A stretch of DNA of 64,000 nucleotides, taken from assembly GCF_053078305.1 (NCBI RefSeq), contig NZ_CP166879.1. One strand, given 5' to 3'. The translations under genes and the position numbers were made by a program. The notes beneath the pieces are model-generated. The model saw nothing but the letters and a program-made list of their open reading frames with translations. It did not search any database and was not told the origin of the DNA. Shown one piece after another: positions 8,468 through 62,462 of the stretch (position 1 is its first letter; each line of letters opens with the position of its first letter).

Positions 8468-8978
8468 TGCTGACAGGCAGTATATTGAGGTAAAGGATTT
8501 AACTCCCTCCAGCCGACAATTTTTTATGACCACAATACGACAGGTTGTGGTCATAAAATTATTTGGCGCTCGCTGTTCTATAAACTCGCATTTTATATTC
8601 CTCAAAGTAAACCGCAATAATCCCGTGTCATCACAAATTATTTAATATGTTATATTTTATGGTACGCTTTAAAAAGCGTAATCATACCCTTACTTGTAAA
8701 TCACCGGCGCTTCTTACAGTTGTAAGAATAACATCACAAATGTCGCGACTCTCTCTGATTACCACGAACCAATATTTATCATATTCTTCTTTTCGTCCTC
8801 ACTACTTACCATGCAGAAAGGAATTGGAAGTAGCGATGAAATGATTTTCAGTACTTGATACAGGAATGTAAAAATATCGAGTGCCGCTACGACGATATTT
8901 TGCGGATTATTTATAGAGGCGTTACGCCTTAAATAAACGCTAAATTAACACATATTTAATTAACTAATAGGTATTGCT

Positions 8979-54971: not shown

Positions 54972-56377
54972 AACTGGCACCGAACGTAAAACGATTACCG
55001 AAAGATAAATACACCGAAGCGGTTATTTTTGCGGGTATTGATGCTCACTCATTCGCAGAGCATTACATCATTGCACAGGCCAAAAAAGCAGGCGATCCAG
55101 TCCCTCCCGTTTATCTGGGGCGTTATCAGTTAAGCGAACTGGATAACCTCCAGATTGTTGATGATGGGCGATACAGGGCGACGGTGATACGCGCCGGAAA
55201 TATTGAAGAGCCGCAGCTGTTAACCATCGCCACGAAACTGGCGAGCGCCGGAGTCCAGGAGGCGCGGCTACTTTCTGAAAATTTCGAATTGCTGGAGGAA
55301 TGGAGCGACCAGCTTCCACGGCTTAGGGAGGCATGGGAACGCGGGGAAAGCCTGGTCATGAAAAAAATTCCCCAGCGAAAAACCACGCTACCGATGAGCG
55401 TTGGATCTACCGGATACGACACACAGCTTGATTACGTGGTAAAGGGGATTATTCCGGCATCGTCGCTTTGCAGCATATACGGGGCGAGCGGTTCCTATAA
55501 ATCATTCCTTGCCGGATCGTGGGCGTGTCACGTTTCCACGGGCCGCCAGTGGGGAGGCCGCAGGGTGGCGCATGGCGCTGTTCTCTATGTGGTTGGTGAA
55601 GGCGGTATCGGCGTTCCGCGTCGTGTAAAAGCCTGGGAGGTTGTGCACGGTGAGCAGGTGAAAAATCTGTATCTGGTAAACCGTCCCATCTTTCCGGCTG
55701 TCCCGCTTGATGTTGATGAACTGGTTATTGCTGCCAGTCAGGTGGAGAGGGAAACGGGTAAACCTGTTCGCATGATTATTCTGGACACGCTGGCGCGTTG
55801 CTTTGGCGGCAATGATGAAAATGACTCCCGCGACATGGGGGCATTTATCCGTGGTTGTGACGAGCTTAAACGGCGCACAGGGGCTACGGTGCTGGTGGTT
55901 CACCATTCCGGCAAGGATGAAACAAAGGGGGCGCGTGGTTCCAGTGCATTTCGTGCATCACTGGACGCTGAATACCGGATACGCAGGGAGGACGCAGGAA
56001 GCGAAGCGCTGGTTATCTCATGCACCAAAATGAAGGACGCGGAGGAACTCAAAGAGGCTGCCTATGATTTGCGGGTGGTGGAGCTTTTTACCGACGCTGA
56101 CGGGGAGTTAATTACGTCGCTGGTGGTGGTGGATAAGCCGCGCCCTCCCGTTGAACTGGAGCGCATCGAGGAGGCAGGCAACAAGACGGAAAACCATACC
56201 GCGCTATGGGGGTGCATCCGTTCACGCACACAGAACGGCGACAAGTGCACGATCCCGCTGTTACGTGACGATATGAAAAAGCTGGGGTATGACACAAAAC
56301 ACCTTAAACGATGGTTAGCCAAACTGGAAAAAGACGACGTGATCTACATTGACGGTGATGATGTAGGACCACTGTAA
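54968..56377 (+). CDS. Replication ATPase (RecA/DnaB-like P-loop, putative initiator/helicase)
   Basis: 469-aa ORF with Walker A GASGSYKS and Walker B IILDTLAR; followed directly by iterons. Confidence 0.65.
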   Translation: MKLAPNVKRLPKDKYTEAVIFAGIDAHSFAEHYIIAQAKKAGDPVPPVYLGRYQLSELDNLQIVDDGRYRATVIRAGNIEEPQLLTIATKLASAGVQEARLLSENFELLEEWSDQLPRLREAWERGESLVMKKIPQRKTTLPMSVGSTGYDTQLDYVVKGIIPASSLCSIYGASGSYKSFLAGSWACHVSTGRQWGGRRVAHGAVLYVVGEGGIGVPRRVKAWEVVHGEQVKNLYLVNRPIFPAVPLDVDELVIAASQVERETGKPVRMIILDTLARCFGGNDENDSRDMGAFIRGCDELKRRTGATVLVVHHSGKDETKGARGSSAFRASLDAEYRIRREDAGSEALVISCTKMKDAEELKEAAYDLRVVELFTDADGELITSLVVVDKPRPPVELERIEEAGNKTENHTALWGCIRSRTQNGDKCTIPLLRDDMKKLGYDTKHLKRWLAKLEKDDVIYIDGDDVGPL

Positions 56378-56580
56378 AAAGTGGGCATTAAAAGTGGGAA
56401 AGGTGGGCGATTTAACGTAATTTTAACAAAATCACCCACTTTCCCACGTGTATATATCCCAAAAAGTGGGCACTAAAAAAATACCTATGAAACAAGATGA
56501 TATAAATCCCAAACTTCCCACGTTGGACGAAGTGGGAAAACGTAAAAAGTGGGCGAAAAAAGTGGGTAGAGGTGGGCAAA
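56378..56580. repeat. Iteron-type replication origin of the satellite
   Basis: At least eight copies of AAGTGGG(C/A)A in both orientations within 200 bp. Confidence 0.6.
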
Positions 56581-57248: not shown

Positions 57249-57521
57249 ATGGTACATGACCGCATAGCGGAGGAACTCGAGGCAAAAGGCTTTTACCGGA
57301 GGGCGGCGGCGCGATGGGGTGAAGTTATGCAGCTGGTGGAGACAGACAAGGAACGGCATCAGGTTACGATGCGACGGCTGGAATGTTCCAGGAAGGCACA
57401 GAGGCCACCGGAGCCGCCGGATAACTTCGGAGACCTGAAAAAAGCAGTAGATCGCACTTATGCCGAAATGGGTATGGATGGTGTAAGCGATGAAATATGG
57501 CGTAATTACCCAGACAGCTAA
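57249..57521 (+). CDS. Hypothetical protein, possibly PerC-like activator
   Basis: 90-aa ORF (ATG 57249); N-terminal AEELEAKGFYRRAAARW resembles PerC family from memory. Confidence 0.35.
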   Translation: MVHDRIAEELEAKGFYRRAAARWGEVMQLVETDKERHQVTMRRLECSRKAQRPPEPPDNFGDLKKAVDRTYAEMGMDGVSDEIWRNYPDS

Positions 57522-57527
57522 TCAACA

Positions 57528-57549
57528 GCCGGAGAAATCCGGCTTTTTT
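57528..57549 (+). terminator. Rho-independent terminator
   Basis: gccgg-agaaat-ccggc hairpin plus TTTTTT; identical hairpin at 59802. Confidence 0.6.
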
Positions 57550-57562
57550 GTACCCAAAAAAA

Positions 57563-57598
57563 GCCCGATAAGTACAGGAGGCATCTTATCGGGCTTTT
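57563..57598 (+). terminator. Second tandem terminator hairpin
   Basis: gcccgataag ... cttatcgggc stem followed by TTTT. Confidence 0.5.
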
Positions 57599-57760
57599 GC
57601 ATATGAGGTTTTTTTGGTGCACTGACACACATGATCGGGGTAATCATTTCATAATTTGCAACACAACTCAACATCATTGCACAAAATGCAATCCTGATTA
57701 TAATCAGAGCTGGATGAACATCCAGTTCTGATTTTTTAAGTCAAAGAGGAATTTCTTACT

Positions 57761-57967
57761 ATGGCTGAAGAGAAAAAAGGCGGTGTTTCGGTGTACATAA
57801 GCCCCGAAATCGTGGAGGTGCTCAAGCAGCGCCACAAAAAAAACTATGAGGCTGGCGTAGCGGCTGGACTGGATCCGCTGATGACGCCGGAGCCGTCGAT
57901 AGGTTCACTTGTGCGCTCTTATTTACTTGCGGCGCTTGGGATGCATAAAAATTATGGTGGTGAATAA
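57761..57967 (+). CDS. Hypothetical protein
   Basis: 68-aa ORF with RBS agagga, immediately upstream of capsid-like gene. Confidence 0.4.
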   Translation: MAEEKKGGVSVYISPEIVEVLKQRHKKNYEAGVAAGLDPLMTPEPSIGSLVRSYLLAALGMHKNYGGE

Positions 57968-59022
57968 TGACAGTAAAAGCAATGGCACTTACAACTAACC
58001 AGCTTTTCGCGTACCTGAATCGCGGGGATATTGCAGAATTTAAATTCAGTCCGCTGTTTACCACGCTGTTTTTCCCGAACGTGGCGACCTTCAACACCCA
58101 GAACATCATGCTGGACACCCTGGACATTGAAGAGGTTACGATGTCAGCGTTCTGTTCGCCTATGGTGGGTAGTCAGGTCCAGCGCGATAAAGGGTACGAA
58201 ACCAGCACGATTAAACCAGGCTACATGAAACCCAAACACGAAATCGATCCAACAAAAACCATCATGCGCATGGCTGGAGAAGATCCGGCACAGCTTAACG
58301 ACCCTACCTACCGCCGTATGCGCCTGATTACTGGCAACATGCGCCGCCAGATAAACGCCATTAAAGCGCGCGTGGAATGGCTGGCGGTGAATGCGATAAC
58401 GACCGGAAAAAACATCATTGAGGGCGAAGGCATAGAACGCTATGAAATCGACTGGAAAATACCGGAAAACTGCATCATAGAGCAGGCCAAGGGTAAAAAA
58501 TGGTCCGAGCATGATAAAGATATTTACGATCCAATCTATGACATCGAACTATACGCAGATCAGGCAGGTTGCCCCGCCAACGTCATGATTATGGGCGCTG
58601 AGGTATGGCGCACGTTACGCAGCTTTAAAAAATTCCGCGAACTGTACGATCTTTCCCGTGGTTCAGAATCCGCCGCAGAACTGGCCTGTAAAAACCTGGG
58701 TGAAGTAGTGAGCTTTAAAGGCTATCTGGGCGATATTGCCCTTATCGTCTATTCCGGCAAATACACTGACAGCGACGGTACCGAAAAATATTTCCTTGAG
58801 CCTGATTTGCTGGTCCTGGGTAACACCAACAATAAAGGGCTGGTGGCCTATGGTGCGATTATGGATCAGGAAGCGGTAAGAACGGGCGCAACGCAAAACA
58901 TGTTCTACCCGAAAAACTGGATTGAAGACGGCGATCCGGCGATTGAGTACGTTCAGACGCACAGCGCACCGCAGCCGGTACCGGCAGATATTCGCAAATT
59001 TGTTACCGTCAAAATTGCTTAA
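57967..59022 (+). CDS. Major capsid protein homologue (lambda gpE-like)
   Basis: 351-aa protein sharing conserved blocks with lambda gpE (FxFxPLF, GYxKPKHE, DPxYRRxR, YDPxxDIExYA, VSxKGxxGDxAxxVYSG, YPKNW, GDPA, SAP); similarity judged from recalled gpE sequence. Confidence 0.65.
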   Translation: MTVKAMALTTNQLFAYLNRGDIAEFKFSPLFTTLFFPNVATFNTQNIMLDTLDIEEVTMSAFCSPMVGSQVQRDKGYETSTIKPGYMKPKHEIDPTKTIMRMAGEDPAQLNDPTYRRMRLITGNMRRQINAIKARVEWLAVNAITTGKNIIEGEGIERYEIDWKIPENCIIEQAKGKKWSEHDKDIYDPIYDIELYADQAGCPANVMIMGAEVWRTLRSFKKFRELYDLSRGSESAAELACKNLGEVVSFKGYLGDIALIVYSGKYTDSDGTEKYFLEPDLLVLGNTNNKGLVAYGAIMDQEAVRTGATQNMFYPKNWIEDGDPAIEYVQTHSAPQPVPADIRKFVTVKIA

Positions 59023-59033
59023 CGGGGGATTCT

Positions 59034-59369
59034 ATGGACACTCCATACATTGAGTTATTTGCAGGCAGTCAGCAGGTATCCACGACGCTGGTACATTTTG
59101 CCGCTGATGCTGGCGTTATTCAGGAATTTACCCCGCTGATGCTGGCGGACAATGGCGAGTTTAAGCCGTGGGATGGTCAGGAATCTGGCAAGGCTGTTTA
59201 TCTGACCTCGTACCCCGTGGACACGTCAAAGCAGAAATCAGCACAGTGTTACAAGACGGGGATATTTAATATCGCCGCCGTAAACTGGCCTGAGAGCGCC
59301 GACACTGACGCGAAAAAATGCGCCGCCTTTGCGGGTTCTGGCGTATCCGTTCAGCCGCTGGCGCGATAA
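59034..59369 (+). CDS. Head decoration protein homologue (lambda gpD-like)
   Basis: 111-aa protein aligning with gpD (TPLML, WDG, YKTGxF, WPE, AFAG), also with the bona fide D N-terminus at 63772. Confidence 0.6.
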   Translation: MDTPYIELFAGSQQVSTTLVHFAADAGVIQEFTPLMLADNGEFKPWDGQESGKAVYLTSYPVDTSKQKSAQCYKTGIFNIAAVNWPESADTDAKKCAAFAGSGVSVQPLAR

Positions 59370-59381
59370 GCAGGGGAAACG

Positions 59382-59795
59382 ATGGCAACGAATGAAAGCA
59401 TCATGGCGCTACCGCTGGCGAGTAAATTTAAAGCAGAAGCGCGGGCAATGGCTGACAGAGGTTTATCAACCTACGAGGCCGTATATCAACTCAACAAACT
59501 GGAAGAGCAGGACAAGCCGCGCGCTGATGCGATTATGGCGCTTCATGAACATAACGACTATCAGCCGCTGTTACGTGCAATGGCAAACGTGCCATGTATT
59601 AGCGTCGATAATGCTCGTGAAATCCTGAACATGACCATAGAGCAGGAGCGCCCAAAGGTTGCGCCGGAGCTTACCGCAGCCTTTGAAAACTTTATGGACA
59701 TGCACAGCCCGAAAGCCGTATCACCCGGCATGGCATACGACGGCAGAAACCAGGGCGATGAAGGCGACGTCGATCGCATACTGAAAACCATCTGA
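59382..59795 (+). CDS. Hypothetical protein
   Basis: 137-aa ORF between decoration-like gene and terminator. Confidence 0.4.
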   Translation: MATNESIMALPLASKFKAEARAMADRGLSTYEAVYQLNKLEEQDKPRADAIMALHEHNDYQPLLRAMANVPCISVDNAREILNMTIEQERPKVAPELTAAFENFMDMHSPKAVSPGMAYDGRNQGDEGDVDRILKTI

Positions 59796-59801
59796 CATAA
59801 G

Positions 59802-59824
59802 GCCGGAGAAATCCGGCTTTTTTT
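59802..59824 (+). terminator. Rho-independent terminator (duplicate of 57528 hairpin)
   Basis: gccgg-agaaat-ccggc plus TTTTTTT. Confidence 0.6.
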
Positions 59825-59856
59825 ACGGGTCCTTTCCGGCATATGGACCCGTTACG

Positions 59857-59868
59857 GGGCGGCGACCT
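59857..59868 (+). other. Satellite cos-like site (cosN GGGCGGCGACCT) in direct orientation
   Basis: About 60 bp (59825-59890) nearly identical to prophage cos 46155-46220, diverging in the cosB-proximal part. Confidence 0.7.
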
Positions 59869-60001
59869 CGCGGTTTTTCGCTATTTATGAGCTTTTTTCG
59901 GGTGCTGGTGGTGGTTTTGTTTTTCGCTCTATCTCTATGAATAAAAAGGGAAAGATAAAACCAATACACCAACCTGAAACATTACTTAAGTGGGGATATT
60001 G

Positions 60002-60544
60002 ATGAAATCGCACCTGATGAACAAAAAAAACATGGCGCAAAGCTGCCGTGTAAGTGCGACAGCGTTCGACAAGTGGGGAGTGACTCCCGTTGAACGTAAA
60101 GGACGCGAGGCTTTTTACGATGTTGCCAGCGTGATAGACAATCGGGTAAGCAATGCAATTAACCAGGTTACAAACGACAAAGGCGAGATTGATGATGATG
60201 AACTCTTACGAGTCAGGATCAGATTACTGACCGCCCAGGCTGAGGCGCAGGAACTTAAAAACGAGCGCGATCGCGGTGACGTAATTGATACTGAGTTTTG
60301 CCTGTACGCGCTTTCAAAGCTGGCGAGTCAGATTTCTTCAATCATGGACAGTTTGCCGCTTACCATGCAAAGGCGCTTCCCGCAGATTACTCCCGCTATG
60401 CTGGATGGGCTTAAAAGGGAAGTGGTTAAAGCCTGTAATGCCAGTGCCACAGTTGCCGACAACCTCCCGAAGATACTGGCTGATTACCTGATGGAAACTA
60501 CCGGAGACGTACCGGAGAAGTTGCTACAGAAGAAAGGCGAGTAA
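60002..60544 (+). CDS. Nu1-like small terminase / packaging-redirection protein
   Basis: ORF 59990-60544 (GTG); C-terminal region resembles lambda Nu1 (LTxAQAxAQELKNxRD, LSxxAxxIxSIxDxxPLxxQRRFP); N-terminal DNA-binding region differs. Confidence 0.6.
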   Translation: MKSHLMNKKNMAQSCRVSATAFDKWGVTPVERKGREAFYDVASVIDNRVSNAINQVTNDKGEIDDDELLRVRIRLLTAQAEAQELKNERDRGDVIDTEFCLYALSKLASQISSIMDSLPLTMQRRFPQITPAMLDGLKREVVKACNASATVADNLPKILADYLMETTGDVPEKLLQKKGE

Positions 60545-60724
60545 CAGACGCGCAATTATTGAACAAAAGTAAGGCCCGACATGAAATCACCCAAAAATGC
60601 CTTTTTCATGCGTTTGTATGTCTGACCTTTTACGGTTTCGATATTATAAAAAACAAATAGTTACGCTCGAGAGGTACCGACACGCATTTTTCAGGAAAAT
60701 TTTCATAAACAGATAAAAACCGCG

Positions 60725-60736
60725 AGGTCGCCGCCC
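60725..60736 (-). other. Second cos-like site in inverted orientation
   Basis: aggtcgccgccc is the reverse complement of cosN; flanks on the minus strand resemble cosQ/cosB. Confidence 0.6.
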
Positions 60737-60800
60737 CGTAACGGGCCATAATTCCAGGAAGGACCCGACGACACCAGGCTATCAGAACGATGAGGGCACA

Positions 60801-61587: not shown

Positions 61588-61610
61588 GTGTATTGCAATG
61601 TGTATTGCGA
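61588..61610. repeat. Two direct copies of GTGTATTGC(A/G)A at the right end (putative integrase arm sites)
   Basis: Same 11-mer as the three copies at 49980-50032, same orientation. Confidence 0.6.
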
Positions 61611-61688
61611 CTCCTTTAAACGATAGGTTTGAGCATTCGTAATGTACTGTTTTTAAATTTTATTTTTTCCTGTCTTTTCATAAAAGCC

Positions 61689-62462
61689 ATGTATGCCGCC
61701 ACCATTGAGAGTGAGCTGGATACGCAGTCAGCGATGGATTTTATTCTGGGCGCGAACAGTCAGGAGCAGCGGGAAAGGCTGACCGGCTGGATTGGTGAAA
61801 TTGCCGCGTATTACGCCGCAGCACCGGTCCGTCTGGGAGGCGCAAAAGTGCCGCACCTGATGCCGGGGGACTCACTGAACCTGCAGACGGCTCAGGACAC
61901 GGATAACGGCTACTCCGTGTTTGAGCAGTCACTGTTGCGGTATATCGCTGCCGGGCTGGGTGTCTCGTATGAGCAGCTTTCCCGGAATTACGCCCAGATG
62001 AGCTACTCCACGGCACGGGCCAGTGCGAACGAGTCGTGGGCGTACTTTATGGGGCGGCGAAAATTCGTCGCATCCCGTCAGGCGAGCCAGATGTTTCTGT
62101 GCTGGCTGGAAGAGGCCATCGCTCGCCGCGTGGTGACGTTACCTTCAAAAGCACGCTTCAGTTTTCAGGAAGCCCGAAGTGCCTGGGGGAACTGCGACTG
62201 GATAGGCTCCGGTCGTATGGCCATCGATGGTCTGAAAGAAGTACAGGAAGCGGTGATGCTGATAGAAGCCGGACTGAGTACCTACGAGAAAGAGTGCGCA
62301 AAACGCGGTGACGACTATCAGGAAATTTTTGCCCAGCAGGTCCGTGAAACGATGGAGCGCCGTGCAGCCGGTCTTAAACCGCCCGCCTGGGCGGCTGCGG
62401 CATTTGAATCCGGGCTGCGACAATCAACAGAGGAGGAGAAGAGTGACAGCAGAGCTGCGTAA
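61689..62462 (+). pseudogene. Portal protein B, 3' portion (codons 277-533)
   Basis: From MYAATIESELDTQSAMDFILG... to the stop; joins the 49850 half in frame to give 533 aa; ORF-track N-terminal extension is satellite sequence. Confidence 0.85.

Follow-up and report, generated by a model that had tools for sequence, protein, structure and literature searches.

Why do the capsid genes of a phage satellite stand between two copies of the same hairpin? In the window, the whole 64-kb stretch of DNA that was analysed, sequence reading and pattern search located GCCGGAGAAATCCGGC at positions 57528 to 57543, followed by six T residues, and again at 59802 to 59817, followed by seven. The first-pass annotation had described these elements as one terminator hairpin placed on both sides of capsid-like and decoration-like genes, and had proposed that the enclosed block was a cassette acquired or duplicated as a unit. 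The repeated hairpin with its T-runs was borne out, and the enclosed genes were identified by Phage_cap_E and HDPD domain matches together with ORFs of 68 and 137 amino acids (Table 1).

The two copies, designated H1 and H2, were the only matches to GCCGGAGAAATCCGGC in the window, even when two mismatches were allowed. This pairing is far above chance, the expectation for the window being 0.04 and two or more matches being obtained in none of 100 dinucleotide shuffles. The repeat finder recorded the pair (family D18) as 22 nt of 100% identity with a spacing of 2274 nt. Identity between H1 and H2 was confined to the hairpin and T-run, the left flanks being CAACA and ATAAG and the right flanks after the T-runs GTACCC and ACGGGT, respectively. 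The pair is a duplicated terminator hairpin and is not part of a long repeat. No clear break in base composition was detected at the hairpins or at the borders of the block.

Table 1. Positions of satellite features in the window
Feature	Position	Strand	Evidence or remark
Integrase	50051-51292		
Primase	54968-56377		
perC-family regulator	57249-57521	+	Last gene of pri-ssb-perC unit; Pfam PerC, E 9.9e-45
H1, hairpin copy 1	57528-57549	+	GCCGGA-GAAA-TCCGGC + T6; fold -12.6 kcal/mol, z -3.9
T2, second hairpin	57559-57598	.	14-bp stem, A7 before, T4 after; conserved in family
Third hairpin	57702-57739	+	14 bp + T6; fold -21.9 kcal/mol, z -7.0
68-aa ORF	57761-57967	+	First gene of capsid block; phrog_3255, E 8.5e-46
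Major capsid protein, lambda E family	57967-59022	+	Pfam Phage_cap_E, E 2.5e-50; phrog_29, E 1.4e-107
Head decoration protein, lambda D family	59034-59369	+	Pfam HDPD, E 1e-17
137-aa ORF	59382-59795	+	Last gene of block; phrog_1999, E 6.7e-62
H2, hairpin copy 2	59802-59824	+	Same 16 nt + T7; fold -14.0 kcal/mol, z -3.4
Satellite cos1	59825-59900	+	cosQ GGGTCCT 59827-59833; cosN GGGCGGCGACCT 59857-59868
Nu1-type small terminase	60002-60544	+	Between cos copies; Pfam Phage_Nu1, E 6.3e-24; phrog_57, E 8.8e-52
cos2, inverted	60696-60767	-	cosN 60725-60736; inverted repeat I1, 72 nt, 82%

A satellite embedded in its helper prophage

The ORF list and domain scans delineated a unidirectional satellite of about 11.7 kb, of which all genes are on the + strand. 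It begins with the integrase, a regulatory zone in which Rfam detected a C4 antisense RNA and isrK, the primase, ssb, perC, H1 and two further hairpins. It continues with the 68-aa ORF, the capsid and decoration genes, the 137-aa ORF, H2, cos, the Nu1-type gene, the inverted cos and a 93-aa ORF. The satellite lies in a lambdoid prophage, whose portal gene it splits at about 49902 and 61629. On its left side are the genes for the terminase large subunit, W and the N-terminal part of the portal protein, and on its right side those for the C-terminal part of the portal protein, the S49 protease and the downstream head genes.

All the characters of a cos PICI were found, including an integrase, an AlpA-type regulator, a primase, unidirectional genes, phage-like cosQ and cosN, and a size within 10-20 kb. 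The split portal gene and the flanking head and terminase genes are those of a helper-embedded PICI. The satellite is thus a cos PICI of the EcCICFT073 type embedded in its helper, which is a known configuration.

The capsid and decoration proteins of the window are homologues of EcCICFT073 c1499 and c1500, respectively. The 68-aa ORF is labelled hypothetical in annotated E. coli relatives. The 137-aa ORF weakly matched head maturation proteases at their C-terminal end (phrog_53, E 1.5e-9), which we take only as a lead. Its identification as a Nu3-type scaffold related to the helper protease was rejected, as BLASTP gave no similarity.

Terminator-like hairpins and predicted transcription units

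Rho-independent terminators of enterobacteria and their phages, including those with GNRA-tetraloop hairpins, are composed of a G+C-rich stem with a U-tract straight after it. In both H1 and H2, a G+C stem of 7-9 bp carries a GAAA tetraloop and is followed by 6-7 T, with no A-run upstream. The U-tracts lie directly after the stem and on the + strand only, and each hairpin is placed 6-9 nt past the stop codon of a co-oriented gene, perC for H1 and the 137-aa ORF for H2; on the coordinates of Table 1 the spacing is 6 nt in both cases. The terminator proposed in the first-pass annotation is in keeping with this anatomy, with the location behind stop codons and with a T-run on one side only, and by anatomy H1 and H2 may be classified as textbook Rho-independent terminators.

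Two other kinds of hairpin were rejected. The lambda-type nut site has a boxB hairpin with a GNRA-like loop, boxA ahead of it and no U-tract behind; here no boxA-like CGCTCTT was detected upstream of the hairpin and T6-7 follows it directly, which rules out a nut site. REP elements are imperfect palindromes of some 35 nt that conform to a consensus and are scattered through a genome in many copies. The present unit has 16 nt and 2 copies in 64 kb, and its resemblance to the REP consensus is limited to the 6-bp outer stem GCCGGA/TCCGGC. Rfam gave no significant hit at the hairpins, and the hairpin sequence did not occur in any paper of the literature library searched.

Between H1 and the capsid operon there are two further hairpins. 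T2 is terminator-like on both strands (-20.5 kcal/mol on the + strand and -22.1 kcal/mol on the - strand), the minus strand being the stronger with T7. The third hairpin adjoins the ribosome-binding site of the capsid operon on its upstream side and overlaps the palindromic, -10-like motif TGATTATAATCA. It is also conserved, and relatives show changes from G-C to U-G and from G-U to A-U. A resemblance to the late promoter/terminator region of lambdoid phages was suspected around AAAATGCAATCC, and for this reason the leader (57550-57770) was compared by blastn with 50,697 phage records. Homology of the leader to the lambdoid pR'-tR' region was rejected, since only chance-level matches (E >= 0.2) were obtained.

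H1 is predicted to terminate the replication/accessory operon of the satellite (ending with primase, ssb and perC) on the + strand and, with the two hairpins that follow, to insulate the capsid operon from this upstream operon. H2 would stop the capsid operon just ahead of cosQ, so that satellite-promoted transcription would be kept out of cos and the small-terminase gene. With H1, T2 and the third hairpin in front and H2 behind, the capsid block would form an insulated transcription unit. H1 is possibly redundant in that two stronger hairpins come after it.

The satellite is co-oriented with the late operon of its helper prophage. In phage lambda, the Q-modified RNA polymerase ignores intrinsic terminators. 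Because of this property and of the co-orientation, the helper polymerase, once modified by Q, is expected to pass all four hairpins late in infection. Both the embedding of PICIs in helper late genes and the expected late read-through have been treated in general terms by Tommasini, Mageeney and Williams (2023, PMC10111431).

Variation of the hairpins among related elements

Relatives were collected from IMG/VR with the capsid protein and the small terminase as queries, giving 155 loci, to which annotated E. coli relatives were added. Conservation was counted in 71 distinct sequences covering the capsid block and both borders. At least one hairpin upstream of the block and exactly one downstream were present in all 71, and two upstream copies (three hairpins in all) were present in 19. 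The case that the first-pass annotation had named as refuting its proposal, a block without flanking hairpins, was not encountered among these 71. A divergent type-2 capsid block, that of the L003 type, which shares its portal insertion site with the element of the window, has no hairpin before cos. The downstream loop was GAAA in every one of the 71 relatives. The upstream loops were GCAA (46), GAAA (22), GTAA (10), the 5-nt variant GAAAA (7) and GAAG (5), thus mainly GNRA forms. Since the upstream copy equals the downstream one in only 19 of the 71 relatives, the exact identity of H1 and H2, including the loop, is a state of the lineage of the window.

The stems were near-invariant among the 71 relatives, and the adjacent bases and the length of the T-run varied. 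We count this pattern of stem and loop conservation as a probable sign of selection on the hairpin. Several relatives, however, keep the stem-breaking variant GCCGGAGAAATACGGC, which counts against the terminator reading.

The identity of H1 and H2 would be uninformative on their history if two unrelated terminators had reached the same near-optimal sequence independently. Stretches containing the exact 21-mer GCCGGAGNAATCCGGCTTTTT indeed numbered at least 120 and came from unrelated phyla, as compared with about 0.5 expected by chance, in a scan that covered one genome per bacterial species and gave minimum counts. Among the 21-mer matches listed, 91 of 122 were located past a same-strand ORF of at least 80 codons, at a median distance of 23 nt, whereas 101 of 600 random positions were so located. 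Given this recurrence in unrelated genomes, mostly past ORFs, the hairpin sequence is a generic solution for a terminator, arrived at on many occasions. Independent origin of the two copies within one satellite is nevertheless already disfavoured, and we regard it as highly improbable: the other terminator-like hairpins of the same satellite all differ in sequence, whereas all 71 relatives have two or three copies of this hairpin. A short ACA or CACACA prefix is also common to several unrelated left flanks, the duplicated unit reaches about 65 nt into cos in some relatives, and in a pair of elements with and without the block the flanks are 100% identical right to the hairpin.

Of 5426 complete E. 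coli genomes, about 490 contain the stretch from capsid to cos at near full length, and roughly 1600 gave partial matches. The same capsid block is present in CFT073 and Nissle 1917.

Position of the hairpin relative to cos

The T-run of H2 extends into cosQ. Alignment with the lambda-identical cos of the helper (46155-46400) indicated that cosQ and cosN are common to the satellite, the phage cos regions and the helper, and that the cosB side of satellite cos1 is unlike that of the helper. Homology of phage cos regions to the satellite begins only at 59820-59822, within the T-run and past the hairpin; the hairpin is thus satellite-specific. Its derivation from phage cos regions was rejected on this ground and because the cos of the helper has no hairpin.

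The constant neighbourhood of H2 and cos raises the question whether the hairpin is instead a part of the satellite cos, a DNA or RNA structure by cosQ aiding terminase to start or finish packaging, the upstream copy being only the relic of a second cos. H2 abuts cosQ in every element with the window-type block, and its loop is invariant in 71 of 71, unlike that of the upstream copy. Moreover, some relatives carry the hairpin with a degenerate cos upstream of the block, and in EcCICFT073 the hairpin precedes cos1, the site required for transfer (PMC6739421). On the other hand, the hairpin is also found where cos is absent, for example between perC and a small ORF, and cos without the hairpin is found in satellites of the second block type and in all phages examined. 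The one-sided T-run and the site right past stop codons are features of terminators. The cos of elements with the type-2 block looks functional although no hairpin precedes it, so the hairpin is not needed beside cos. A role in packaging is therefore considered quite unlikely, and terminators remain the preferred reading of both copies.

A third class of relatives, including Nissle 1917 and L018, has an intact cosQ and the degenerate cosN GGGCGGGAGGCG behind the hairpin that closes ssb. This degenerate cos is followed by the capsid block and then by the hairpin and cos1, so that a hairpin-cos unit of about 65 nt is duplicated. The arrangement is consistent with a scenario in which the block was inserted by Campbell-type homologous recombination at a hairpin-plus-cos unit. 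What was duplicated would then probably be this unit, its upstream cos decaying later and being lost in lineages like that of the window.

The hairpin as a probable joint between modules

The 50-nt flanks of 266 hairpin occurrences, a set that includes duplicates as some contigs were recovered by both queries, were clustered into 10 left-context and 6 right-context types, joined in 14 combinations. The left contexts include the ends of perC in two variants, of ssb, of a small ORF, of a gene designated geneX and of the 137-aa ORF; the sequences on the right include T2 with the capsid block, cos, degenerate cos, a module with a small ORF and the stretch leading into the second type of capsid block. 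The capsid block was preceded by 8 different left-flank types, and the end of ssb was followed by 4 different modules. Many E. coli relatives become homologous to the window at one of two points, 57527 at the foot of H1 or 57557 where T2 starts.

Two indels were bounded exactly by hairpin copies. One concerns the capsid block itself: L012 has the order geneX, hairpin, T2, capsid block, hairpin and cos, whereas L137 and L140 have geneX, hairpin and cos. The left flank was 100% identical between these elements over about 260 nt as far as the hairpin, and the right flank was near-identical from the T-run through cosN. The second concerns a small-ORF module of 364 nt, which in L016 lies between perC and T2 with a hairpin on either side, whereas in the window a single hairpin joins perC to T2. 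The comparison with elements lacking the capsid block, by which the first-pass annotation had suggested that a cassette could be recognized, thus gave a single hairpin between the same flanks. Whether the block was gained or lost cannot be told from this pair. The single hairpin of the block-less L137 and L140 has a GTAG loop and matches neither copy of L012, and no recent hairpin-to-hairpin exchange was caught in this comparison. Direct joining of the perC of the window to hairpin-cos was found in none of the 5426 E. coli genomes.

Presence and absence of the block, the single copy at the empty site and the palindromic nature of the hairpin might also be expected if the hairpins were sites of a dedicated recombinase, like integron attC. 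There is, however, no candidate recombinase besides the island integrase, whose own repeats differ from the hairpin (for example GTGTATTGCAATGTGTATTGC at both ends). Furthermore, the 16-nt site has generic terminator properties, and the loops of the filled and empty forms differ. A site-specific cassette system is accordingly regarded as extremely improbable.

Altogether, we consider it probable that both copies are terminators alike by descent, that the hairpin is the module joint of this satellite family, and that the capsid block with one copy of the hairpin is cassette-like. The cassette proposed in the first-pass annotation is supported in part, by the presence/absence pair of L012 and L137/L140. 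No evidence was obtained for duplication of the block, and the hairpin is not specific to the capsid genes, as it closes every module of the right half (ssb, perC, small ORF, geneX, 137-aa ORF). At the ends that it closes, modules would also be joined, exchanged, gained or lost, and the likely route is homologous exchange within or beside the hairpin and T-run of about 22 nt.

A further step would be to regard the hairpin as a portable homology patch by which late-zone cargo such as the capsid block, perC and small ORFs is shuffled. Exchange might then be driven by RecA or by Red-type recombinases of the helper during co-replication, and the first capture of the capsid genes may have been a Campbell-type insertion at the hairpin-plus-cos unit. 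A length of 22 nt is barely sufficient for RecA-type recombination, which counts against exchange at the hairpin. We put this forward as a tentative idea, rather doubtful at present; if true, the hairpin would do for satellites what the proposed boundary sequences do in the modular evolution of phages.

Comparison with known systems

Among the closest known systems is EcCICFT073, the model cos PICI of Gram-negative bacteria, which shares with the window the order perC, hairpin, T2, 68-aa ORF, c1499, c1500, 137-aa ORF and hairpin, continued by cos1, a gene, the inverted cos2 and the 93-aa ORF. Its cos1 and cos2 have been described (PMC6739421; PMC6092414), and the two cos sites of the window match them, cosQ and cosN being phage-like and cosB different. 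The two elements differ in the gene between the cos sites (Nu1-type small terminase in the window, rppA in EcCICFT073), in the loop of the upstream hairpin (GAAA and GCAA, respectively) and in the site of insertion (the prophage portal gene and a site next to phoQ, respectively). The hairpins are unmentioned in the papers on EcCICFT073 (Fillol-Salom et al. 2018, PMC6092414; Fillol-Salom et al. 2019, PMC6739421), and the hairpin is thus present yet undescribed in this model element. For the helper-embedded PICIs, terminators or a repeated joint sequence at zone boundaries are not part of the published description (PMC10111431), with which the window shares a 'dynamic late zone' with captured capsid genes.

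By its anatomy the hairpin is an intrinsic terminator of the ordinary kind, which a known satellite family reuses as the standard boundary of its modules, and its novelty is modest; the mechanism is standard and nothing is overturned. Its value lies in the simple map of transcription units that the hairpins provide for the right half of these satellites, a family both widespread and of medical relevance, in which the capsid genes are predicted to form an insulated unit. In addition, the hairpin offers a concrete candidate for the joint at which the 'dynamic late zone' swaps its modules. For the engineering of PICI-based delivery vehicles, the hairpins would offer natural, tolerated cassette boundaries.

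With Rho-independent terminators in general, H1 and H2 have in common the 4-nt GNRA loop, the site a few nucleotides past a stop codon and the coding-strand location. In contrast to the usual terminators, one hairpin sequence is here used two or three times per 11-kb element and marks the module junctions throughout a satellite family. Similar roles have reportedly been proposed for the morons and conserved module-boundary sequences of lambdoid phages (Juhala et al. 2000; Clark et al. 2001), and promoter/stem-loop cassettes (PeSLs) are reported to shuffle genes in T4-type phages (Arbiol et al. 2010). The present case differs from these in that a single 16-nt terminator hairpin is involved, with no promoter half shown, and in that the element is a satellite and not a phage. 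It resembles them in that short conserved regulatory sequences delimit modules, with a terminator at the 3' end, and may serve as homology patches for exchange.

Satellite in the helper portal gene

The satellite was found to be inserted in the portal gene of the lambdoid prophage that serves as its helper, both lying in the same orientation. This location inside the helper portal gene is a known arrangement of helper-embedded PICIs (PMC10111431). In E. coli strains such as Z0117EC0116, the same portal site carries a different satellite, whose capsid block is of a second type. The satellite of the window has GTGTATTGCAATGTGTATTGC, a doubled form of the motif GTGTATTGC, close to each of its two ends. 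A doubled att-associated motif has been mentioned for helper-embedded PICIs, and GTGTATTGCAATGTGTATTGC probably corresponds to it.

Positions of features in the window and in related satellites
Feature	Sequence	Position	Strand
Helper portal gene, two parts (satellite in between, ~49.9-61.6 kb)	window	49021-49902 and 61629-62462	
GTGTATTGCAATGTGTATTGC	window	49980-50000 and 61588-61608	
isrK and C4 antisense RNA	window	53558-53743	
AAAAAGTGGGC direct repeats	window	56374-56566	
Capsid-operon leader	window	57559-57760	
137-aa gene	window	59382-59795	
cos1, one of two inverted copies	window	59825-59900	+
Palindrome of cos1 (cosQ segment and its inverted repeat before cosN)	window	59825-59856	
cos2, one of two inverted copies	window	60696-60767	-
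Third cos-like sequence	L018	3396-3480	
Third cos-like sequence	L002 (Nissle 1917)	about 8800-8900	
Third cos-like sequence	L131	2277-2350	

Regulatory zone, capsid-operon leader and last capsid-block gene

In the regulatory zone of the satellite, Rfam search detected two RNAs with scores above the gathering thresholds, isrK with 66 bits and C4 antisense RNA with 77.6 bits, and these fit the P4/P1-type immunity RNAs noted for these satellites. Within the primase/ssb interval, AAAAAGTGGGC is directly repeated at a spacing of about 84 nt; these repeats are probably iterons of the replication origin.

The capsid-operon leader shows high conservation and contains repeated TTGCA motifs, together with the palindromic TGATTATAATCA, which resembles a -10 element on both strands and overlaps the base of a 14-bp hairpin stem that is followed by T6. 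The T-run of T2, another hairpin within this leader, is better on the minus strand. The leader could be a promoter under tight control, or it could template a small antisense RNA terminating at T2. A homology search with the leader gave no match to lambdoid late promoters. The product of the last capsid-block gene (137 aa) weakly matches head maturation proteases at their C-terminal end (phrog_53, E 1.5e-9), a hint that this protein may be scaffold-like; it shows no similarity to the S49 protease of the helper, and protein scan gave no match for the gene in some relatives.

cos sites and the segment between them

A third cos-like sequence is located directly 3' of the post-ssb hairpin in relatives (L018, L002, and L131). 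Its cosQ is intact and its cosN is changed to GGGCGGGAGGCG, and it may represent a decayed cos or a cos with different specificity. In cos1, the cosQ segment ACGGGTCC forms an inverted repeat with GGACCCGT, just 5' of cosN, and this palindrome is absent from the aligned cos of the helper.

The mutually inverted cos1 and cos2 flank a Nu1-type small terminase gene. Protein scan of other relatives gave no match for terS between the two cos sites, and EcCICFT073 carries, in contrast to the window, rppA between the same two sites. As its contents differ in this way, the segment between cos1 and cos2 is an exchangeable module in its own right.
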